Both the position numbers and the translations under genes were made by a program. A DNA stretch of 64,000 bases from a virus: the IMG/VR virus record IMGVR_UViG_3300021197_001350, positions 10,398 to 74,397 of that record; one strand, given 5' to 3'. Under the pieces are notes generated by a model, which saw only the letters and a program-made list of their open reading frames with translations, did not search any database and had not been told where the DNA came from. Shown in pieces: positions 1-64,000 of the stretch; within the stretch, counting starts at the first letter, position 1; each line of letters begins with the position of its first letter.

Positions 1-3000
1 ACTTGCTGAGTTTCCGTATTGCTGATTCTGCACGCCTTCTTCATTTATCATCAAGGGATTCTTTGCACTTGTAAACAAAGGAAGTATCATCCCTTCCGTA
101 AACATATTCTCATCAAGTATAGGAACCTGAATCGAGTCTGTAGTGGGTACAAGGTTTGAGTTTATTGCCTCATCAGACTCAACTAACCTTTTATTATATT
201 TCTTTGCTTCCTTTCTTAGGGCATTCTTATGCCTTTCGGAAAGACTTGTATCATAATATACTAGCCCACCTTGGTACTCTATTAAGTCCCTTACATCCAC
301 ATCATAGCGGTTCGCCGCATCTTGCCATGTGGGATTATTCTGACTGCTAGTCGGGATACCTGATTCAAGGTCAGCAACCTTATCCTCCGTCTGTAGTAAA
401 GTCTGAGATGATGGTATACTATTAACCTCTGCCGTAAAGGATGTGCCTGTCAGTGAGCGTTGAACATTTTCTACGCTAGCCTCAAGCAGTGTATTCATTT
501 GCTCACCCATATAACTTGCGTGGGCAGTAAACTCCTCGTGTGATACTTCCTCAAGATGCTTGCCTAGGGCTTCCGCACTTACCTCACCCGAGAACATATA
601 TGCCTTTAAAGATTCTGGGCTTGCGACTGACGCTGGCTCAACTTCACCACTAATCAACCCATTGCGGGTGATCCTTGTTTGTACAACACCAAGATCTGGG
701 TCACTATACAAGTCTGACTTGACCCTAAAGTAGGAAAGTTGCCCATCTTTTCCTTCAATGGCAATCATCCCCATAGGTTCTTTGTCGTTAGTTACAGTTG
801 CGTAATGCTTTACATTTGATATGTCCCTAATGATTACACCATTAGACACTAAATTTTCATGCGGAGCAGACACTACCCCAGGAAGATAGAACATTCTTCC
901 GATAGCTTTATTCTTCTTGTGGACAGGATAACCCCACCCGTCTTTACCTGTATTCTTGTGGTGAACATTCTGACTCAGGCTAGGCTCACCCGTAATCTCG
1001 TCATATACATAGCCCTCAGTAAACTCCTCTTCTAGTATTGAGCCTGATAGTAAGCTTGATGGAACTGGATATAACTCAGACTCATCTATGGTTGCCTCAC
1101 TAGAACTAATAACACTGGTTAAGTAGATCGGTGCTAGATTATTAAGACCCTCATTTGTCATAATCTCATCATCAAGTATGAGCTTAGCCTGAGATGAAGT
1201 TCCTGCCATAGAGAAGTTTTCAAAGTACGACTTTAAATACCTCTGCCTTAATGTAACCCGCAGTGCATCCTGAGACAGCCCCCTGTGAGCTTGCAACGAT
1301 TCAGACCAGCCAACCGCAGGTCGGGCAGTCAATGACAGGAATACACCATATTTAGTATCATCAGCCTCATTGCCTCCATCCTTCCCTGCATCGATAGATG
1401 AAAAATACTCTAGTTCATTATCAGATATATCTGGATCAAGTTGCCCCCCACCTATATCAGTCTTCTTTCCGCTTATTATTTGACTACTAGGAGCTGGCAG
1501 GTTAACGCCTATATTGTCATCGGTGACAGTAACACTTCTCCTATGCGACTGTGATGATCTTCCGTGAAAAATAAACCTTGGCTCATTTGTTTGGGCGTGC
1601 CTAAAGAACCCTACCTCTGTAGTTGGATTCTCTCCCTCAACCCCCTGAAATCCCAACATCCAATCACCATAAAAGTTTCTAAATGAAGGTGTCCTTACTA
1701 GCCTCCACATATCCTCATCAGCGGGACGCTTACCCTCTCCCTCCATTATCGCAATCATAGGATTCTTCACCTCACTTAAAGGGGGAGTTGGATTCTTCTG
1801 TGATCTAGGTTGAGAAAGCAAGTATCTCTTGTTTGGCAAAAGCCTCTCACCTAGATAGTCCTGCCCTTGGTCGGTTGTCTCCAAGTAGTGCATCGGCACT
1901 TCCTGCTCATCTATAATGGTAGTCTCTTCTATGTTTATAGACTGAGCTTCATTGAGAGTTTTTCTATTACTAACCGATGGCATTCTGGATATAATGCTAT
2001 TAACAGCAAAACCCTCTAATGTGTATAGTATCTTTTCTTCGGGCGTAATCGTTGGATCACTTAGGACTTTCATTACTGGATCAACCCTAACCCTGCTTCT
2101 CTTATTTAATGCACCAATCTCCAGCGTCTGCTTCATTAAAGCACCAGTTAATGCATGAATACTAGCCTTAGGTTGAACCACTCTACCCATTGCGTAACCA
2201 AGCCCGTCCCAAATTCTACCCTTAATCTTAAATCTTTTAGATAGGTTATTTGGAAGTGGTATAGTTTTTAGGTAAGCCTGGAACTGAGGATTGTTTCTGG
2301 CTTCAGATATAAACTCTCTTACATCAGTCAGGCCATACTGCATTGGGTCATTTGAGAATCTTTTAGCAGCCTCAAATAAAGATACCCAATCTGCTTTTGC
2401 CTGCCTTGCCTTGCCACCAAATTGAGCCTGAGCAATTCTTCCTGACATCTCAGCCTCTACAAAAACCGACTCAGTAATGTGATGGGTTAGCTCATGTCCA
2501 AGTATTTCCGCCAAGGCGTTCTTCTGTATCTCAAGATACCTTGACTTCTCAGTCTCATTTGTGGGGATCGCACTCGCTATCCCGAAGTCCTTAGATATAA
2601 ATATAACAGGTCTTGCTAGTCCAGCCGCATAGTGGTACTGAGCCACCTTGCCCTGAAACAATCTAGACATCGTACTCTTATTTAAGATGCGAATATCAGG
2701 TGCAATAAGACCTGTCTTATTCATATCCCTATATAAATTTGAGAGGGTATCATTCTCCGCAAATGCGGTTAACTCTGATACAGTTAATTCTTTATCACCG
2801 AACTCAGCCCAAAGGGAATCATTTAACCCTGCCCTTACTTCGGTTGTATATCTAGTCTCCTTGCCCGTGGTTTGATTATGTCTATTGACTACAATCGCAG
2901 TAGGTGAGGAGGGAGTTAGTTCTACATTCTTAAGGTCTCCCGTAACAGGATTAAGCAAGTCGGGTATCAAGTGAGGATCTCTTACTCTGGTTAAAGTTCC

Positions 3001-6000
3001 CGCCTTCTCGCCAGCAGTAAACTCTGGGCCTTTAAGCCATGAAAGAAATGGTGGCAAAGTTTCATTATCTCTAGCGATAAACTGCTCCATCTTAACTCTC
3101 AAGTATTTCTCCGAAAGATCTGCCGCTATCATGGGATCAAAGCCAGCTGCTTCAGCTACCGCTCTGTATATCTGATAGAATACCTCTCTGATTTTTCTTA
3201 TTACAGCCCGAATGGTTCCCTTCTTTATGTTAGTGTCGGCTAAGTTTTTAGCTACAGTTTCAACTAGCACCTCTTCGGCTGACTCAATTTCCCTAAGCTG
3301 ATCCAGGCTAAGCTTGCCCTCATCATACTTATTCCTAGCCCTCTCCATCCTTTTCTTGAGATGCTTATTCCCAAACTCCTTACTGGTCTCATGTATAGCA
3401 TTCAGTAAAGCCTGCCTGTCCATCTCTGGAAGGCTATCCAAAACGAAGTGGGTGGACTCATGGTATAGTGATAAAATATTTGTTCCGTCTGGTCTAAGGA
3501 GGTCATTCATTACCATCCTTATAATGGTGTCGGCTTCATTCGTTGATATCTCTGCATTGTTTGCATGGAGAAACCCATAAACACTCTCCATGTTTTTCTT
3601 AAACAACTGCACATCAACACCGCTCTTACTTAAAGCTTCAAGGAGTTGCGTAAAGTCTCTATCTAGTTCTATAGATTTTGATATCTCATGGTTGGTGTCA
3701 CTTATCCTACGCTTAACTTTTCCTTCTCTAGCTTCTGCTATTCTCTTGGCTCTATTGTTTACGCCATACGCCGACCGCTCGGAGGCAGGTAGGGGTGATG
3801 GCATCCAAGTTCCTTCACTTCTAAGTTCCTTCTCCGCCTGAATATAATCATTCTCTGTCACCTTTACTTCGGGTGACTCCTCGACCTCTTCTATAATCTC
3901 ATCTGATTGTATAGGTGTTGAGTCGGCTATGCTTTTATTCTGTGCATCAACAGCTGCTTCAGCTACTTTTATTAAATGCTCTGCGGGGCTAGAATTGTTT
4001 TGCGTAATTGAAATAAATACATCATCCCACATAAGGAAGTCCGATGGAAGTCGTGCATCAATTAGGGTATTTATTCTTGCAAGTATTGCATCCTTATCCG
4101 CCCCATTAAAAAGATTTGCCAAGTCCTCTGGAGACCTAGGCACATAATCTTTTCTTATGAGGGTAAGAAACCTGTCAAGCTGCCTCACTGTTAGATTGCG
4201 ATTTAATAGTACGCTAGCTATTTTTGGCACAGATTGAATGATCTCAGATCTTGGAGTATCCAGTTGGCTCTGCCTGGTTCCAGTTGAACCTGTCTTTATA
4301 GGCTCAACCCAATCCTTGTAGTCGGTTAAAGTCTTCCATGTTTTTTGCTCAGGATAACCATTGAGAGAGTCAATAGTTTTATCCTCACCCTTCATAAACT
4401 TCTCTAGTCTTATTACTGATATAGGCTTATAACCTGCATCAATAACATCCTGAAGTTTTGCGGGCTTGTTTGATCTTGATAGCTCAATATTATTTTTACT
4501 ATTAAGCATACCCAACACGCCAAGTGATCCTGCGGCAGATGAACCCTTCCTTGTGTCTGAGGTAAAATCTGAAAGGCCAGACATAACTATACTACCATCA
4601 GGGGACTCTAAGATTATAACACCTCTAGTCCTATACCTATCACCCTTCTTGCCTCCTAGGTTAGTAGTAGAGCCATTGCCTCCAGTGTCCCTATCTCTGA
4701 GAGTCGTGATTATGGATGAAGCATCTTGCCCAGCTACATCTATCTCCGTTCCCACTGTTGCCCACTGTGGGTTTTGTCCAGCCTTCGTTCGATATACTTG
4801 TATTGCTGAGTCTGATTTAGGTACAACGATTGAGTCTGGGTTCTTTACTACCTCACCCGCTGGATTAACAACCTTGATTCTCCTGCCTGTGTGATCAGTG
4901 ATATAAGTGCCATTAGCATCTTTCAGTATAAGAAAAGCTATTGGTCTACTTCCCTGACCATCATCAAAATCTTTCGAGTACCCAAGGGGCTTGTTAGTCT
5001 TAGCTCCGCCAAGCCTTATCCCGTAGTAATATTTCCGAAGTGTACTCTTCTCGTAGGAGTTTGTGTTAAACAAAACTCCCATTGACATAATTTCCCCATC
5101 GGCATTCAGTGGATTCTGTAGATTGCCTGCCTTGGTAGCCCTATCAAACTGCTCCTTATTCATTAGCCCCTGAACTCCGAGGGCGGCGGAAACAGGATTG
5201 GATGCATCAACTGAGCCAGATATAGCTATACCCTGACCGCCCCTAGTCTTTCCATCTAGGTCGGTATACTCTCTCTTGGTTACAGGGTAAAAGAATTGCC
5301 ATGTTTTTGTGGAGGTAACACCTTCAACCACTTCATGCTGAACACTAATAGGCTCCCTCCTAAAGTTATTGTATATCTCAAGCACCCTTATCCTGTGCAG
5401 CTGCTTATTAGAAGCACCGCTTCCAACCCTACGCCTCAGGTCTTGAAGTATATCATCAGCTACCTCTAGTACCCAACGCTCAGTTGTTGTCTCTACCTCA
5501 CTAAACTCTTCCTTAATAAGCTTCGTAAGCTCTTCGGGTGTTATGAATCCCTCATTAAAGTCCTGCGTTTTACTGCGGATGTCATCTACTATAGTCTTCT
5601 TCCTTGCATTATAATCTCTACCATCCTTTGACTTATAGCTCTTAATGGATCCAATGTCATCTATCTCTGTGACGCTATACTCATCCACCTGACCTGTTGG
5701 ACTACTGTGCTGTAACTTAGCACCCTTTCTTTTGGCTCCACCTCGTTGGGCTTTAACTACTTTCTTTTGCTTATCGCTATCCTGCTTCTTTATTGATGCA
5801 GTTTTTTGCGGTGAGTCTGGCTCATTGCCTAACAATCTATCTAGCTTTACTAGGGGATCAGATAGATCAATACCTTTGGCGTGATCAAGCTCCCTTTGTG
5901 CTGCACCCTGTAGTGCCTTTGCGTCCTTAAGTTTACTCTCTCTTGCTGCGAGTGGAGTGACAGATACTAACGCATCCTTGCCTGTCTTTTTGACCCTACC

Positions 6001-9000
6001 TTGTGAAGCCTGATCAACCTCAGCTTGAGCTACACGCACTGCCTCATTAGCTTTTTCTAAATCTTCTTGAGCCTTGGCAATTCTACGCTGATCAATCTTG
6101 GGGGCGGCCTTCTTCTTCTTAGGCTTAGGAGTGTCTTCTATATCCTCGTACTCGTCTTGATCTTCAGCTTGGGTAGTTGCTGGCTTTGGAGTACCTTTCT
6201 TAAAGTTCTCTATCTCCTGCTCGATACCCTTTAGCTTCTTCCTTTGCTCTTCTATCTTAACCCTGTGAGCCTTATACTTCTTAGAGTTTGCTGACTTAAA
6301 TTTACCGCCATTCTTTTGGGTTCTGCCTTCCGCTACAAGCTTGTTTAGTTTTGCCTTAGCAGCTTTCTTTTGATTAACTAAACTCTTAAGTTTTTTCGCG
6401 AGCTGATCCTTTGACTCTGTTGGTTTCTCAGGGTCTTTTTCAATTCCCTGCAACTCTTCTAGCAGTGATTCACTACCCTTTTGTGTTCTTCTTTTCGACC
6501 GAATAATTGGAGAAACAGATTCGGGTCGCTCCTTCTTTACTCTATCAGCAGCTAATTCTCTTGCACGCTTTTCTATAGCAGCGTCCTGATCTAGTTCAGT
6601 ATCAATCCCTATGTCTGCAACTTTTTGTTTAGTGATCGCTTCAAATCGCTTCTTTGCTTTTTCCGCTATTTGATCCCAGCTTAGCTTCTTAATCGCTCCT
6701 TCAAAGGATCGAGTGCCTGGATCGGGAAGTATACCAAGATCGTTATACCGATCATTGACTTCATTAAATATAGCCTTACCGTCCCATGCGCCATCAAGGT
6801 AGTAGCCAGACTGTAATCTATTTATGAGAACCTCTAGATCATATACCTGCTTTTGATCTTTCGTACTTAGCTTGGCGTATTCTTTTGTCTTTGTGTAAGA
6901 TATATTGCCTCCGCCATCCTCGATTAGAGTTCGAGTAAAATCAATGCCTTGACCTTCCACCTCATCTCTTGCCTGCCTATACTCTTCCTCGGTTGGCTCA
7001 GACTCTTTATCTTTAGCGATAGCTTCATCTAGGGAACTAAAGTCTGTCGTGGTCTTTGTTTGTTCTATCCCTATCTCTGCAGCACTTTCTGCGGTAACAG
7101 GAATATTCTCTATGCCCGCGAGGGTTGCTAGCTCATAGCGATGATTGCCATCCTTGATCTCATAGAAAGCTTCACCCGTAGCATCCTTTAAGGCTTTGTT
7201 GTGACTAACCTCAATGGGATTACTCTTCAGGAAACTTAGCAACTTTTGCTTGTTTTCTGGATCGGTAAGTAATCTCTGCAAGTCTTCAACTGTTCCAATC
7301 TCACCCTTTTGCACAGGGTATCCATTAGGATTCTTAAGCCCTATATATACAGCTAGATCAACAAGCTGACCCATCTCAGGTTTATTCGCACGGGATATCT
7401 GTGCATCCTCTTCAGCTATAGCTTTCTGGAAGCTGAAGGTCTGTACCACATCAGCACTCTCGGTACTCTCTGTTGGCTCAGTAACTTCTTCTTCTGTTAT
7501 TAAATTGGTCTCGGCATTGGGAAACTTTTCTAAAAGTTTTTCTACCTCAGCAAGCCTTGCGTTTGCATCGTAGTCAGGGTCAAGCCTTGCGTCACCTTGC
7601 GCAAGCATATCAGGCGGATTGGCTAGATCTTGTTCAATGCTATCACGCTCCCGCTCAAGAGCTTCCCTTTCTCTTTGCCTCTCCTGATTCCTTCTCTTTT
7701 CTTCAGCCTCAATAAAAGGCCCGAACTCGGCTGTAGCGGATTCAGTGCGAACATCTGCTTCAGCCTGTAGGTCAGCTTGACCTTGAGCAGAAGCCTGCTG
7801 AACCCTCATTAAATCTTCCGCAGTAGGCACACCAGTTATACTCTCAGTTGGTATAGTTACAACTGGCCCAGTCCTGCCAATGCCCGCTACTTCCCCAGAG
7901 AAATCGAAGTCTAGTATAGGCTCAATAGATGTACCCTCTCCTGTAGTCCTGACAACCCTACCTATTTGGGGCGTACCACTACTTCCAGTATAGCTAACAA
8001 TAGCACCTTGCTTAGATGTATCTATAGTTTGATCTGAATAGGATGATGTGCTTGAGCTTAAATCAGTTTGATCAGGTGCGGGAGGAGTAGACCCCTTACC
8101 TACAGCTGTAAGTCCACCACCTATGGAACCTGCAACTGCACCAATTATACTGGCATTAATTACCTTAGATTTTGTAAAGTCATCCCACTCTACATCCTCT
8201 CCTCTTTCCCATTTAGGAGCAGCCGTATTAATAAATTCCTGAAAACCTTCAGTGCTTCCTTCTAAGGCCATACCTATGCCAACCTTGCCTAGGGTTGAAT
8301 CCTTTGACCTCTGGACTTGCTTACCAAGCCAAGTTAAAGCTCCATCCTTAACAGCCTGAGATTCTCCCATTAAGTTGGCTCGCTTAAGGAATGAACGACC
8401 AACCCATGCGGGTAGTATTGAATCAGGTAATGCCGCTATACTTCCATACGCAAGTGCAGGTGCTTGAGCCTCTTCATGTGAAAAACCATCACCACGAAGT
8501 GTGTTGTATATCTCGCCACTATTTAAAGCCAGTGAGTTTAAAGTTGAAGCACCTATGCCGCCTCTCATTTTCCATAGCTGAGCTGCGTAGTCTTCAACAT
8601 CCATGATCTCGCCAGCCCGCTTTCTCCCCTCAAGGACAGCCTTGTGACCAACACCATATGTTGGATTCTTTCGAGTAACTTTCTGAGCCATAGACTTCCG
8701 CAAGTCTTGCCTCATCTTAGATGCCACGCCTTTCTTTACGGCTGCCTTACCTGAATAGATTGCTGCAGCTCCTGTTCCTGCTGTACCGCTACCAATAAAG
8801 TAAGCGGCTACACCCTCCACGAGGGATGGTATAGCTTGACCTAATATATTCGCAGAGTACTCGCGTAAAGCTCTACCACTTATCCCATTAGCTCTAAATA
8901 AATCTTCATACTTTCTTACTGATGCCCTGGGTGCATTTGTCTGCAGATCAACACCCCACTGGAATGCGGCCTCACCGCCTGGCAATCCTGTCATACCATA

Positions 9001-9375
9001 GCCACCAGACATTGAACCAACCATTCCTCGGGTTGCTTTATTGAGTCCACCACCGAACTCATCAAGCATACCACTGTCTTGACTTTGAAGATCGAGATCT
9101 AAATAGTCATCTCTAAACTCAGGGTTAACGGACTCTGCAACCAACGCACGCATCCCTGCGGATCCTTCGCTCGCCTGAGTATTTCGTAACTGATCGCCAA
9201 TGAATGCGGTTAGCTCACTATCTGACCGTGGATCATATGTTCCTTGCTCAGCAAGTTTAGCTCTATACTTTGCAACAAGCTCATTGGTTCCCGTCCTGCC
9301 GTCAAGCTTGCTAGGCAGATCATTCTGCCTAATCTCACTATATAGGCGGTTGATCTCGTCTGGAGACTGAGCCAT
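1..9375 (-). CDS. Giant virion/ejection polyvalent protein (>=3125 aa, 3' end outside window) with two zincin HExxH motifs and an ART-PolyVal-like domain
   Basis: ATG at 9375 overlaps the upstream TAA (TAATG) and begins MAQSPDEINRLY. All spot translations were stop-free down to base 1, and the track has no minus-strand ORF here, consistent with no stop in the window. Motifs: LYHESTHF (3448-3462), LGHELTHH (2482-2496) followed by YGLTDVREFISEARNNPQF, and WRLVRTPSFRNFYGDW...EPRFIFHG...GVFLS...PIYL...GVIIRD...VKS (about 1707-715). Confidence 0.9.
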   Translation of the reverse strand, partial: MAQSPDEINRLYSEIRQNDLPSKLDGRTGTNELVAKYRAKLAEQGTYDPRSDSELTAFIGDQLRNTQASEGSAGMRALVAESVNPEFRDDYLDLDLQSQDSGMLDEFGGGLNKATRGMVGSMSGGYGMTGLPGGEAAFQWGVDLQTNAPRASVRKYEDLFRANGISGRALREYSANILGQAIPSLVEGVAAYFIGSGTAGTGAAAIYSGKAAVKKGVASKMRQDLRKSMAQKVTRKNPTYGVGHKAVLEGRKRAGEIMDVEDYAAQLWKMRGGIGASTLNSLALNSGEIYNTLRGDGFSHEEAQAPALAYGSIAALPDSILPAWVGRSFLKRANLMGESQAVKDGALTWLGKQVQRSKDSTLGKVGIGMALEGSTEGFQEFINTAAPKWERGEDVEWDDFTKSKVINASIIGAVAGSIGGGLTAVGKGSTPPAPDQTDLSSSTSSYSDQTIDTSKQGAIVSYTGSSGTPQIGRVVRTTGEGTSIEPILDFDFSGEVAGIGRTGPVVTIPTESITGVPTAEDLMRVQQASAQGQADLQAEADVRTESATAEFGPFIEAEEKRRNQERQREREALERERDSIEQDLANPPDMLAQGDARLDPDYDANARLAEVEKLLEKFPNAETNLITEEEVTEPTESTESADVVQTFSFQKAIAEEDAQISRANKPEMGQLVDLAVYIGLKNPNGYPVQKGEIGTVEDLQRLLTDPENKQKLLSFLKSNPIEVSHNKALKDATGEAFYEIKDGNHRYELATLAGIENIPVTAESAAEIGIEQTKTTTDFSSLDEAIAKDKESEPTEEEYRQARDEVEGQGIDFTRTLIEDGGGNISYTKTKEYAKLSTKDQKQVYDLEVLINRLQSGYYLDGAWDGKAIFNEVNDRYNDLGILPDPGTRSFEGAIKKLSWDQIAEKAKKRFEAITKQKVADIGIDTELDQDAAIEKRARELAADRVKKERPESVSPIIRSKRRTQKGSESLLEELQGIEKDPEKPTESKDQLAKKLKSLVNQKKAAKAKLNKLVAEGRTQKNGGKFKSANSKKYKAHRVKIEEQRKKLKGIEQEIENFKKGTPKPATTQAEDQDEYEDIEDTPKPKKKKAAPKIDQRRIAKAQEDLEKANEAVRVAQAEVDQASQGRVKKTGKDALVSVTPLAARESKLKDAKALQGAAQRELDHAKGIDLSDPLVKLDRLLGNEPDSPQKTASIKKQDSDKQKKVVKAQRGGAKRKGAKLQHSSPTGQVDEYSVTEIDDIGSIKSYKSKDGRDYNARKKTIVDDIRSKTQDFNEGFITPEELTKLIKEEFSEVETTTERWVLEVADDILQDLRRRVGSGASNKQLHRIRVLEIYNNFRREPISVQHEVVEGVTSTKTWQFFYPVTKREYTDLDGKTRGGQGIAISGSVDASNPVSAALGVQGLMNKEQFDRATKAGNLQNPLNADGEIMSMGVLFNTNSYEKSTLRKYYYGIRLGGAKTNKPLGYSKDFDDGQGSRPIAFLILKDANGTYITDHTGRRIKVVNPAGEVVKNPDSIVVPKSDSAIQVYRTKAGQNPQWATVGTEIDVAGQDASSIITTLRDRDTGGNGSTTNLGGKKGDRYRTRGVIILESPDGSIVMSGLSDFTSDTRKGSSAAGSLGVLGMLNSKNNIELSRSNKPAKLQDVIDAGYKPISVIRLEKFMKGEDKTIDSLNGYPEQKTWKTLTDYKDWVEPIKTGSTGTRQSQLDTPRSEIIQSVPKIASVLLNRNLTVRQLDRFLTLIRKDYVPRSPEDLANLFNGADKDAILARINTLIDARLPSDFLMWDDVFISITQNNSSPAEHLIKVAEAAVDAQNKSIADSTPIQSDEIIEEVEESPEVKVTENDYIQAEKELRSEGTWMPSPLPASERSAYGVNNRAKRIAEAREGKVKRRISDTNHEISKSIELDRDFTQLLEALSKSGVDVQLFKKNMESVYGFLHANNAEISTNEADTIIRMVMNDLLRPDGTNILSLYHESTHFVLDSLPEMDRQALLNAIHETSKEFGNKHLKKRMERARNKYDEGKLSLDQLREIESAEEVLVETVAKNLADTNIKKGTIRAVIRKIREVFYQIYRAVAEAAGFDPMIAADLSEKYLRVKMEQFIARDNETLPPFLSWLKGPEFTAGEKAGTLTRVRDPHLIPDLLNPVTGDLKNVELTPSSPTAIVVNRHNQTTGKETRYTTEVRAGLNDSLWAEFGDKELTVSELTAFAENDTLSNLYRDMNKTGLIAPDIRILNKSTMSRLFQGKVAQYHYAAGLARPVIFISKDFGIASAIPTNETEKSRYLEIQKNALAEILGHELTHHITESVFVEAEMSGRIAQAQFGGKARQAKADWVSLFEAAKRFSNDPMQYGLTDVREFISEARNNPQFQAYLKTIPLPNNLSKRFKIKGRIWDGLGYAMGRVVQPKASIHALTGALMKQTLEIGALNKRSRVRVDPVMKVLSDPTITPEEKILYTLEGFAVNSIISRMPSVSNRKTLNEAQSINIEETTIIDEQEVPMHYLETTDQGQDYLGERLLPNKRYLLSQPRSQKNPTPPLSEVKNPMIAIMEGEGKRPADEDMWRLVRTPSFRNFYGDWMLGFQGVEGENPTTEVGFFRHAQTNEPRFIFHGRSSQSHRRSVTVTDDNIGVNLPAPSSQIISGKKTDIGGGQLDPDISDNELEYFSSIDAGKDGGNEADDTKYGVFLSLTARPAVGWSESLQAHRGLSQDALRVTLRQRYLKSYFENFSMAGTSSQAKLILDDEIMTNEGLNNLAPIYLTSVISSSEATIDESELYPVPSSLLSGSILEEEFTEGYVYDEITGEPSLSQNVHHKNTGKDGWGYPVHKKNKAIGRMFYLPGVVSAPHENLVSNGVIIRDISNVKHYATVTNDKEPMGMIAIEGKDGQLSYFRVKSDLYSDPDLGVVQTRITRNGLISGEVEPASVASPESLKAYMFSGEVSAEALGKHLEEVSHEEFTAHASYMGEQMNTLLEASVENVQRSLTGTSFTAEVNSIPSSQTLLQTEDKVADLESGIPTSSQNNPTWQDAANRYDVDVRDLIEYQGGLVYYDTSLSERHKNALRKEAKKYNKRLVESDEAINSNLVPTTDSIQVPILDENMFTEGMILPLFTSAKNPLMINEEGVQNQQYGNSAS

Positions 9376-42496: not shown

Positions 42497-42536
42497 ATGA
42501 CAGCCGTAAACCCTTGAATGACAGCCAGTTGCTAGG
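42497..42536 (+). repeat. ATGACAGCC direct-repeat pair, copy 1
   Basis: ATGACAGCC at 42497 and 42518 (21-bp period), then AGTTGCTAGG. Confidence 0.85.
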
Positions 42537-43033: not shown

Positions 43034-43044
43034 GCCTTGTGATT

Positions 43045-43084
43045 GGGGTAGCCCTTCGGGGCTACCCTACCTTTTTTTTCTTTT
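43045..43084 (+). terminator. Rho-independent terminator (cUUCGg)
   Basis: GGGTAGCCC-TTCG-GGGCTACCC then TACC and a T-tract. Confidence 0.85.
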
Positions 43085-43117: not shown

Positions 43118-43726
43118 ATGTCTATCGACACAGCAGTATCAGCAACATCAACAATACAAACACCATCCAATATGGATGATGCAGATTGGAGTCACTTTCG
43201 TAAGCTCGACAAGTTAGAGCTTGATTGGTCACCTCGTTCCATCTTGGATCATCTCAAGATTAGCCCTAACACTGTCCGTAGGATATTGGGCTACTCCGAG
43301 ACCAAGGTGGCTAATGCTGAAAGGCATCTTCGTTATAAGTCTTCAACTTATAAGCCACAACCTTGCAGTTATGTTGTCCGTCCCATAAGGGAGGATGAGA
43401 TAAATGGTGAGGATGTTAGGATGAAAGTGGTTGACTACTATGATGGTGACAGGGTTAAGCCTGGCTATAAGCCATCACCACTAAAGGTTGACCGAGGTGG
43501 TATAGGTTATGAGGATGCCTTCTACGAAGCAGTAGGTTTGGGAGGTGACAAACATAGATTTCCAATCGTTGATGTTGAACAGGGTAATGATGATGAAGTT
43601 GCCACTATGTCTTACGAACATAAGACAGGTGGTGCTATAAGCTTCGTCAAGAAAGCAGTAGCCAAGATGACTCGCCGTAGGAACTACGGAACTTGCTTGT
43701 CTACTATCAGTCCTTACAGATCGTAA
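43118..43726 (+). CDS. Early protein with HTH-like motif
   Basis: WSPRSILDHLKISPNTVRRIL; CAA-rich leader with AGGAGG. Confidence 0.7.
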   Translation: MSIDTAVSATSTIQTPSNMDDADWSHFRKLDKLELDWSPRSILDHLKISPNTVRRILGYSETKVANAERHLRYKSSTYKPQPCSYVVRPIREDEINGEDVRMKVVDYYDGDRVKPGYKPSPLKVDRGGIGYEDAFYEAVGLGGDKHRFPIVDVEQGNDDEVATMSYEHKTGGAISFVKKAVAKMTRRRNYGTCLSTISPYRS

Positions 43727-44207
43727 GGCTGAACCGACCCACTTGGGGGTCGTTAAACATACCAAGACACTTTTTCGGATGGTAGTATGGCTACTATGCT
43801 TCGCCAAAAGCATGGAGAAATCCAAGTTATGAGGTTAGGAAGATTGACCACGGCATCCATATGGATGACTAGGTTGGCTTACTCATGGTAACCCTATCTA
43901 TGGGGTTTGATACCGAGGCTGAGTCTCATGTCGTTGATTATTCAGTCGGGCTTTATATGCATAGATTATCCTGTAATACAGGGTGTCGGTCTCTCCTTCA
44001 TGAGAGGCATAGGAATCCCAAGTATAGATGAACGATCTATTGAGGCTTATCACCTTTCTATACTCCAAGATCAGGCATAGGGGATAACAGCATCGTGGTT
44101 TACCAGTCGGTGCTAAGGTGGGGATCATCGTATGGTGTGACCACCAAGAACGGGGACAACATTTATACGGAGGGTTGTCATGCAGTATGGCGGTAGGGGG
44201 CTATACT
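43727..44207 (+). ncRNA. Putative large structured ncRNA, module A (~480 nt)
   Basis: No credible ORF; more than 12 nested helices with G-U pairs on the plus strand (e.g. 43917-24/43940-47, 43908-14/43982-88, 44021-28/44057-64, 44184-91/44200-07). Confidence 0.6.
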
Positions 44208-44219
44208 AATATTTACTTT

Positions 44220-44344
44220 TGAACAACGATATACATCACGCTGCAGATGGTCACTATATCGGGGTCGGTTTGGTAAGAGCTTGGACTAGTGACGGCTAGT
44301 CTACATTACCTTAACTCTCGGTGTTAGAGAGGCTGACCTGTTCA
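44220..44344 (+). ncRNA. Putative structured ncRNA, module B (~125 nt)
   Basis: Closed by TGAACA/TGTTCA; internal CGATATA/TATATCG, GGTCGGT/GCTGACC, GGTAA/TTACC, GACTAGT/GCTAGTC, CTCT/AGAG; followed by a T-tract. Confidence 0.6.
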
Positions 44345-44374
44345 TACCTTTTTTTATTTACATTTTCAAAGAAA

Positions 44375-44413
44375 ATGACAGCCGAAAATTGGCGAATGAC
44401 AGCCAGTTGGTAG
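44375..44413 (+). repeat. ATGACAGCC direct-repeat pair, copy 2
   Basis: ATGACAGCC at 44375 and 44396 (21-bp period), then AGTTGGTAGG. Confidence 0.85.
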
Positions 44414-44500
44414 GGCGAGCAGTTGATTTGCTGTTTCACTTGTGTATTATATTTATAAAATCAATGGATGCTTCCGCATCCATGTGTTGGAGGAACTGCT

Positions 44501-44608
44501 ATGAAGATAAAGATACGGAAGCCTATATTGTTTACCAAGTCTAGACCATTCAAGGTTAAGGCTAAGGTGTTGCATCGTAAGATGAAATACAAGGAGAGGC
44601 TAGCTTGA
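44501..44608 (+). CDS. 35-aa highly basic peptide within the RNA array
   Basis: GGAGGA SD; MKIKIRKPILFTKSRPFKVKAKVLHRKMKYKERLA. Confidence 0.6.
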   Translation: MKIKIRKPILFTKSRPFKVKAKVLHRKMKYKERLA

Positions 44609-44643
44609 TAGGGCAAGCAAATAATCCCTAACAATTTACTTTT

Positions 44644-45039
44644 GATGGATTGATCATCCATCATGGGACGCTAGTAGAAGTCACAACCTTAGTGACACTA
44701 GCACTCATGTCCGAGTGATGCTCGGGGTCAACGGCTAAGTAGCTGAGGCTAGGTGAAGGACACCGATGTAGGGTAACGCCTACCATGAGGTACTGATCTG
44801 ACAATCCTATAAACTGAACTATAGGTATGTCTCCTGCAGGTGAGGGTTCACAGCCCAAGTCCTGTCATTGTCGCATAATAATGGACTTAGGAACATAGTG
44901 CGAACAAGGTCTGCAATGTTGCAGGTTCAACGAGCAAGTGCTTGAGAACGGGTTAAACACCTACCAAGTTGCGGAGATATCATGTCGTTAACTAAGGATC
45001 AGTTGGGAGAAGGCTGAAGAGTAATCTCCCCCCGACCAT
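44644..45039 (+). ncRNA. Putative large structured ncRNA, module C (~395 nt)
   Basis: GATGGAT/ATCCATC, GCTAGT/ACTAGC, GTAGG-GTAA-CGCCTAC, CCTATA/TATAGG, AAGTCC/GGACTT, CTGCAA/TTGCAG, long-range ACTGATCT/GGATCAGT, GGGAGA/TCTCCC. Confidence 0.6.
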
Positions 45040-45046
45040 TTTACTT

Positions 45047-45179
45047 TAGCCGTGTGGCAAGTTCGTTGTAAAAAGAACTAGAATGATGAGTTGGTAGAAC
45101 AGAACGCTCTGCAAGAAAATCTACCATGAAATAGTGCGAATCATAGGGTAACGACCTTGAGGCCAATCATCCACGGCTA
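45047..45179 (+). ncRNA. Putative structured RNA, module D (~133 nt)
   Basis: Closed by TAGCCGTG/CACGGCTA; internal AGTTC/GAACT, TGGTAGA/TCTACCA, AGG-GTAA-CGACCT. Confidence 0.6.
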
Positions 45180-45211
45180 TTCATTTTCACCAACAATAAC
45201 AAGGAGGAAAT

Positions 45212-45490
45212 ATGAATGACGATACATTAAGACAAGCGGTAAGAATGAAGCAAGGTATTGAATGCCTTAGCATAAGAGATCTCAACAAGTTAGTAGGTGC
45301 TTATATACTAGGCACTCAACCTAGCTATATTGTTAGGTCTGCTATCAGTGATGTCGCTAAAGAAGAGTTCGTCAAGGAGTATGGAAAGGCTCAGCTATCT
45401 TGGGTAGATAATGCCGAGCAATACTCCAAAGGTACGGAAGCCAACTTCATCCTGGAGTCAATGCATGGCGACAGGATAGAGCGTTTATAA
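45212..45490 (+). CDS. Early hypothetical protein
   Basis: AAGGAGG SD. Confidence 0.75.
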   Translation: MNDDTLRQAVRMKQGIECLSIRDLNKLVGAYILGTQPSYIVRSAISDVAKEEFVKEYGKAQLSWVDNAEQYSKGTEANFILESMHGDRIERL

Positions 45491-45498
45491 TACCCATA

Positions 45499-45529
45499 AG
45501 TCTGACGGGGCAGACTATAAACAACCCCG
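45499..45529 (+). promoter_or_regulatory. H-type pseudoknot in an intergenic leader
   Basis: S1 AGTCTG/CAGACT, L1 = A, S2 CGGGG/CCCCG, L3 ATAAACAA. Confidence 0.55.
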
Positions 45530-45571
45530 ACTATTTATTTCTAATCAACAATAACAAAACAAGGAGGATAT

Positions 45572-45943: not shown

Positions 45944-45956
45944 AACAAACAAACAA

Positions 45957-45986
45957 GGCAGGGGGGAGGTATACTTCCCTCCTGCC
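45957..45986 (+). terminator. Strong hairpin (terminator or stabiliser)
   Basis: GGCAGGGGGGAGG...CTTCCCTCCTGCC; weak U-tract. Confidence 0.5.
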
Positions 45987-46021
45987 CACTTTAAACTAAC
46001 ACCAAGAGAAAGGATAATATT

Positions 46022-58013: not shown

Positions 58014-58246
58014 CTTTCGGTGTAAAGATGCAGGAGCATAACAAACAAGTACGACTGACACGGGGTGTGTTCCTCCGAACGAACAAGATATTGCATCCTA
58101 GAAGGGATAAAGCGTGTAAGGTTTTCTTATTTTCTCCTTACTAAGCCCAACCTGCTTGATGCTCTTGTATCTGTAGCCGACATTACAACAGGGAGTATGT
58201 ATTGCTCCCTGCCTCTCCCTCTGTCAGGAGGGAGGGGAAACTTTTT
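58014..58246 (+). ncRNA. Structured intergenic element E, ending in terminator-like hairpins
   Basis: ACAAGA..GCATC/GATGC..TCTTGT, GTAAGG/CCTTAC, CAGGGAGTA/TGCTCCCTG, CCTCTCCCTC/GAGGGAGGGG then a T-run. Confidence 0.45.
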
Positions 58247-58250
58247 AAGA

Positions 58251-63807: not shown

Positions 63808-63997
63808 AAGTTACGGCTTCCTCTAGGTTAGAATATTGTTTAACTTCCGTGGGTTCAAGTTCGTAAGTGTGGGGATCTGTCTTCTTATATGTAGTCACAT
63901 TCCAATTTTGGGACTCAAAGTGTAGGTCAATGTTAACCTCATTCTCGCCTGTAACTTTTATATTAAACTGATTACATTTAATCTTTGGGGTCATCAT
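63773..63997 (-). CDS. Hypothetical protein
   Basis: 74 aa at the window edge. Confidence 0.5.
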   Translation of the reverse strand: MMTPKIKCNQFNIKVTGENEVNIDLHFESQNWNVTTYKKTDPHTYELEPTEVKQYSNLEEAVTYAREIAGSKIV

Positions 63998-64000
63998 CAG

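Follow-up and report, generated by a model that had tools for sequence, protein, structure and literature searches.

The joints between the structured RNA domains of a novel multi-module phage locus carry a short U-rich motif that is real, conserved and predicted to be single-stranded. The locus belongs to the early region of an uncultured marine phage and lies in the window analysed here, a 64,000-nt stretch covering bases 10398–74397 of a 74.4-kb IMG/VR phage record, in which ~1.5 kb without long ORFs separates a 202-aa ORF (43118–43726) from a 92-aa ORF (45212–45490) and contains the RNA modules A1, A2, B and D (Table 1). A role of the joints in RNA processing is plausible.

The genes of the phage include those for a terminase, a portal-like protein, a DnaB helicase, an exonuclease, a Sak-like annealing protein and an integrase. 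The phage has no close cultured relative; its helicase shares at most 33% identity with those of cultured phages, and a DNA similarity search of 50,697 phage records found nothing. A giant ORF of >3125 aa on the minus strand (1–9375), open at the window start, contains no domain of Pfam or PHROGs. The last 126 nt of the contig (window about 63875–64000) repeat genome positions 40–165, which suggests a circular or terminally redundant genome, though IMG/VR calls it linear. Carriers of the locus fall into four lineages: (i) the window; (ii) L003/L005/L012, a 96% identical contig; (iii) L009, about 78% identical over the RNA stretch and 73% identical in the amino-acid sequence of the 202-aa ORF; and (iv) L011/L007, a distant pair with 43–46% amino-acid identity. 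A search for further lineages by RNA patterns returned only the 96% relative from IMG/VR and none from prokaryote genomes, and a literature search for a described counterpart of the locus found none.

Table 1. Coordinates of the joints, RNA modules, pseudoknots and neighbouring features in the window.
Feature	Position	Strand	Description
Pseudoknot PK1	43735–43766	+	H-type; 8 nt past the stop of the 202-aa ORF
Joint J1	43767–43776	+	U-rich GACACTTTTTC between PK1 and A1; predicted unpaired; ACTTTT core after structure
RNA module A1	43777–44208	+	Multi-helix, about 430 nt; 125 predicted pairs
Joint J2	44209–44222	+	Copy 1 of the 12-mer (44211–44222); 44209–44219 unpaired, TGA 44220–44222 paired
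RNA module A2	44220–44344	+	Closing helix 44220–44224 with 44340–44344
Joint J3	44345–44368	+	T7 tract, then ATTTACATTTTC (44356–44367); unpaired
Pair of ATGACAGCC boxes	44375–44414	+	21 bp apart, from a repeat search; same pair at 42497–42536
Candidate promoter of transcription unit 2	44423–44450	+	Sigma-70-like, TTGATT-16 nt-TATTAT; consensus scan only
35-aa basic peptide ORF	44501–44608	+	77–80% identical at the amino-acid level in L009 and L011; synonymous changes are many
Pseudoknot PK2	44603–44629	+	H-type; overlaps the stop codon of the 35-aa peptide ORF
Joint J4	44630–44645	+	Copy 2 of the 12-mer (44634–44645); 44634–44642 unpaired (p 0.90–0.98), TGA 44643–44645 paired
RNA module B	44643–45034	+	Hairpin 44643–44663 and multi-junction domain closed by 44664–44667/45031–45034
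Joint J5	45035–45049	+	ACCATTTTACTT unpaired, TAG 45047–45049 paired
RNA module D	45047–45179	+	Conserved closing stem of about 8 bp
J6, leader of the 92-aa ORF	45180–45211	+	Pyrimidine tract, predicted to base-pair with the start codon and Shine-Dalgarno sequence of the ORF
Pseudoknot PK3 and U-rich tract J7	45499–45545	+	After the 92-aa ORF, before the next Shine-Dalgarno sequence

The modules are genuine, independently folding structured RNAs, in agreement with the preliminary description, which had spoken of non-repetitive structured payloads. The support comes from covariation across three or four sequences: in A1, 13 pairs are compensatory, where shuffles gave 4.2 ± 1.7 and slid controls 0–3; 7 of the 41 pairs of A2 are compensatory across the four lineages, L011 included; and B has 4 compensatory among 133 predicted pairs. 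The many G-U pairs assign the RNAs to the + strand. The inner hairpin of module D is missing in L009, as is an A1 hairpin at 44116–44150, a variable peripheral arm that also differs in sequence between the window and the 96% relative. Neither the window nor its relatives contained a match to Rfam 15 at gathering or permissive (E up to 10) thresholds, or a tRNA or tmRNA gene in an ARAGORN search (0 genes), so that a tRNA array was rejected. A CRISPR or other repeat array was likewise rejected, there being no repeat families beyond short motifs and no similarity among the modules. Nor are the modules paralogues of one another: only a motif of ~20 nt is common to B and D. These two modules share two 10-mers in differing order, TAGGGTAACG and ATAGTGCGAA (44769/45144 and 44895/45131), which may be tertiary-contact or protein-binding motifs. 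GOLLD and ROOL are likewise big, highly structured non-coding RNAs carried by phages with no assigned function, but the present locus matches no Rfam model and forms a chain of smaller separable domains.

The 12-mer ATTTACTTTTGA occurs exactly at 44211–44222 and 44634–44645 and nowhere else in the window, with close variants at 44356 (ATTTACATTTTC), 45038 (ATTTTACTTTAG) and 45178 (TATTCATTTTC). All five sites had been given in the preliminary description with correct positions and sequences; a sixth, at 45532, reads TATTTATTTCT and not TATTTATTTTC. The exact repeat is by itself poor support for a motif: under a Markov model, a 12-mer would recur within 1.5 kb with P about 0.06, and when up to 2 mismatches are allowed the window holds no more copies than chance predicts (9 versus 9.9 expected). 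The exact copies have unrelated flanks and hence do not belong to a larger duplication. The core gives better support, being clustered: TTTAC[AT]TTT occurs six times in the 74.4-kb genome (both strands), three times within 430 nt of the ORF-free locus (44212, 44357 and 44635) and three times in coding DNA.

Partition-function folds of the two presumed transcripts predict that J2, J4 and J5 are single-stranded, with 44209–44219, 44634–44642 and 45035–45046 unpaired at p 0.63–0.98. The three nucleotides after each linker (TGA at 44220, TGA at 44643 and TAG at 45047) are paired at p 0.8–1.0 with the 3' strand of the closing helix of the next module, and an AU-to-GC covariation backs the pairing of the first nucleotides of A2. 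The repeated "U-rich linker" of the preliminary description thus stands as a conserved, predicted single-stranded U-rich joint, but its 12-mer is too long: because the last three nucleotides are paired, the functional linker comprises 9–12 nt ending in UUUACUUU.

The exact copies had also been placed just before a module start, and the variants at the other boundaries. A module does follow at 44211 (A2), 44634 (B) and 45038 (D), but not at 44356, 45178 or 45532. The 44356 copy lies downstream of the T7 tract at the end of A2 and upstream of an operator/promoter region and a small ORF, with no RNA module following, and transcription unit 1 probably ends at J3. Two of the six sites, 45178 and 45532, belong to ORF leaders, where they precede Shine-Dalgarno sequences, and are not boundaries of RNA modules. 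The ORF at 45212 is predicted to have its Shine-Dalgarno sequence and start base-paired to 45180–45191 with probabilities of 0.6–0.9, and these pairs also appear in the alifold prediction.

Comparison with L009 showed that the joints are constrained as sequences. The octamer UUUACWUU is identical at 32 of 32 positions across all four joints. The whole linkers are identical at 49 of 54 positions, which exceeds the 75.7% identity of the other unpaired columns (binomial P = 0.0045), and the paired columns are 88.7% identical. Because the core boundaries were picked after inspection of the data, these figures are somewhat flattering. All four copies of TTTAC[AT]TT in the 6.25 kb of L009 are on the + strand and at homologous joints. 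The J4 sequence TTTACTTTTGA is identical across L003 and L009, and a 17-nt stretch of J3 is identical in L009 despite the 135-nt insert immediately upstream there. Joint copy 1 admits pyrimidine changes, reading ATTTACCTTTGA in L003 (U-to-C) and ATTTACTTTCGG in L009. The homologous tract of L011, ATTTCTTTGA, is displaced by 5 nt and predicted to pair within module Y of that lineage. The linkers are nearly G-free.

Every gain, loss or swap of a module between lineages breaks at the joints. A1 is absent from L011/L007, where an unrelated, strongly structured module Y (z = −6.2) takes its place and A2 is kept. L009 carries the 135-nt insert at J3 with a T-rich tract on either side, as well as an extra 166-nt module X (z = −2.9, closing stem UGCACC/GGUGCA) at J5, between the motif copies CTTTACTTTTG and ATCACTTTAG. 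L009 also lacks a cassette of the 92-aa ORF and PK3, which in the window has a copy of a shared leader on either side. The expectation that linkers would be conserved while modules vary is therefore borne out, the same kind of linker being found in L009 with its extra module and insert and in L011/L007 with another first module.

These breakpoints bear on the possibility that the joints are passive insulating spacers or recombination joints, G-poor so as to prevent misfolding between neighbours, and without a trans-acting reader; their mutual similarity would permit module swaps by short-homology recombination, like the sequences at the boundaries of phage gene modules. That similar U-rich or T-rich tracts bracket every lineage indel, including module X and the 135-nt insert, that the cassette lies between two leader copies and that the linkers contain almost no G are all consistent with such spacers. 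Neutral drift, however, predicts an identity of 76%, as in other unpaired positions, and the cores are fully identical, although gene conversion could mimic this. On balance, passive spacers are considered unlikely, while deserving serious weight. In lambdoid and other mosaic phages, short conserved boundary (linker) sequences are found where gene modules are exchanged between relatives. The present joints resemble these in being conserved short sequences at sites of module exchange, and differ in that the modules are RNA domains in one non-coding stretch and the joint is constrained as single-stranded RNA.

On the + strand of the early operon, each of the six ACTTT[AT] sites outside ORFs comes after stable structure, as would be expected if the joints were the U-tracts of weak terminators or pause sites between modules, passed via antitermination or coupled translation. 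This explanation is also consistent with a scan that called 44184–44207 plus its tail terminator-like, with the T7 tract at 44350–44355/6, a plausible terminator before the promoter region, and with a canonical terminator at 43044–43069 in the same operon. Against it, the U-rich core at J4 and J5 begins as far as 5–8 nt past the helix or pseudoknot, AC interrupts the tracts, and L009 does not retain the hairpin preceding J2 (helix 20: 83% of cells paired, 4 broken). A G+C-rich hairpin followed within 0–2 nt by a U-tract of 7–9 nt, the layout of an intrinsic terminator, was found at none of J2, J4 and J5; at J3, a single site, the T7 tract lies 4 nt after the closing helix. Termination or pausing at the joints is rated as improbable. 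The Nus-factor boxA sequence GCUCUUUAACAA is matched by J2 at 9 of 12 positions, but the window contains 61 such matches versus 73 expected, and a boxA site was rejected. Elsewhere, strong G+C-rich inter-ORF hairpins at 45955–45995 and 58205–58250 are followed by CACTTTAAAC and AAACTTTTTAAG.

It is very doubtful that the joints are promoter elements giving one transcript per module, with TACTTTTG as a −7 box or TTTACT as a −35 box. Both copies of the 12-mer contain TACTTTTG, a perfect TAnnTTTG, but no joint has a −10/−35 partner at a spacing of 16–18 nt, and the final TTTG is broken in copy 1 of L009 (TTTCG), at J5 (TTTAG) and at J3. The strong AAGGAGG Shine-Dalgarno sites also contrast with the weak Shine-Dalgarno context in which the −7 box of Bacteroidetes phages occurs, and no phage RNA polymerase was detected in searches that included Pfam and PHROGs. 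A scan for sigma-70 promoters found no hexamer pair at the joints; the sole nearby pair seen by eye, TTGTCA-21 nt-TATACT before J2, is wrongly spaced and missing in L009. Sigma-70 promoters and the −7 box were both rejected. Since the joints lack promoter hexamers, the modules are taken to be co-transcribed, and separate RNAs would need processing.

Pairs of ATGACAGCC boxes lie upstream of both early transcription units (ATGACCG in L009) and look like operator or activator sites. In L014/L015, which lack the RNA modules, a relative of the highly basic 35-aa peptide comes first in an early operon, downstream of a TTGACA-17-TATGAT promoter. A genome scan for H-type pseudoknots whose third loop is A-rich gave exactly three (43735, 44603 and 45499), all on the + strand, against about 0.2 per strand in shuffles. 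Each of them (43735–43766, 44603–44629 and 45499–45528) has two 5-bp stems, lies at or 8–9 nt past an ORF stop and is followed by a U-rich tract, and covarying versions are present in L009 (that of PK2 at 2251–2281). The stop codon of the 35-aa ORF sits inside stem 1 of PK2, and the final codons of the 202-aa ORF form a hairpin with its stop codon. The pseudoknots may link translation termination to RNA fate.

Tentatively, and with somewhat less than even confidence, the joints are read as accessible endonuclease joints of the RNase E type. On this reading, a row of unrelated RNA domains (A1, A2, B and D, with extras in relatives) would be co-transcribed with early genes in two units, and a single-strand-specific endoribonuclease, most likely a putative host enzyme of the RNase E type, would enter or cut at each joint; both the cutting and the identity of the enzyme are what we infer. 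Cleavage at AC|WUU would release each structured RNA from its neighbours and from the adjoining mRNAs. The flanking pseudoknots and closing helices would then block exonucleases and set stable ends, and the pseudoknots could cap the 3' ends of the upstream mRNAs once the joint is cut.

The RNase E consensus is RN|WUU (PMC5222698), and the core fits it, as AC|UUU at J2, J4 and J5 and as AC|AUU at J3, the single variable core position (U/A) coinciding with the W of the consensus; the consensus is very loose, and AU-rich spacers generally tend to fit it. A single-stranded AU-rich segment, as at RNase E sites, is predicted at J2, J4 and J5. Among the 21 RNWUU sites of the two window transcripts, five are predicted to be accessible and four of these five lie in linkers, but the accessibility prediction for L009 does not single out the linkers among its RNWUU sites. 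The shifted and predicted-paired tract of L011 and the U-to-C change in copy 1 of L003 also argue against RNase E.

RNase E would not need so specific a sequence as the octamer, whose strong conservation may therefore point to another reader. One such reader could be a non-cutting protein (Hfq, S1, the 202-aa protein or the 35-aa basic peptide) that chaperones or assembles the RNAs. Hfq and S1 bind U-rich single strands, the octamer conservation is sequence-specific beyond the need of RNase E, and every lineage with the RNAs also has the 202-aa ORF and the basic peptide. However, the 202-aa ORF has no family, no recognisable RNA-binding domain and no relative among PDB sequences, its fold prediction was uninformative (pLDDT 33), and the peptide is also found in L014/L015 without the RNAs; a non-cutting reader is held to be rather unlikely. 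The last ~35 residues of the 202-aa protein are almost invariant, even in relatives with 44–46% identity. The chance is judged slimmer still that a phage-encoded factor, again the 202-aa protein or the 35-aa basic peptide, reads UUUACWUU and excises or assembles interchangeable RNA modules.

Precursors with a comparable layout are known: those of the E. coli tRNA operons and of the phage T4 tRNA cluster, which also includes two small stable RNAs, are cut by RNase E at AU-rich spacers. The present locus shares with such precursors the arrangement of structured RNAs in a row on one transcript and the short AU-rich single-stranded spacers beside closing helices, and its spacer core fits RN|WUU (PMC5222698). 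It differs from them in its payloads, which are 130–430 nt long, mutually unrelated and neither tRNAs nor members of an Rfam family, in the interleaving of modules with ORFs and pseudoknots, and in the specific conserved octamer of the spacer. CRISPR arrays and the ToxI arrays of type III antitoxins are similar in that a short repeated element punctuates the transcript, processing being only proposed here. In those arrays the repeat either makes up most of the array or is itself its structured portion, and the gene for a dedicated nuclease lies close by, whereas here the repeat is an unstructured tract of 9–12 nt between long structured payloads, and the searches of the phage genes turned up nothing resembling Cas6 or ToxN.

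If the joints are processing sites, several large, unrelated stable RNAs would be made early from one transcript, in a tRNA-operon-like layout with entirely new payloads. Should a phage-encoded factor read the octamer, the locus would represent a new RNA-processing or assembly system and not the reuse of host RNase E. The joints provide a handle for defining the mature RNAs and then probing their function, and, since modules come and go there, phages may be able to shuffle RNA domains as they do genes.
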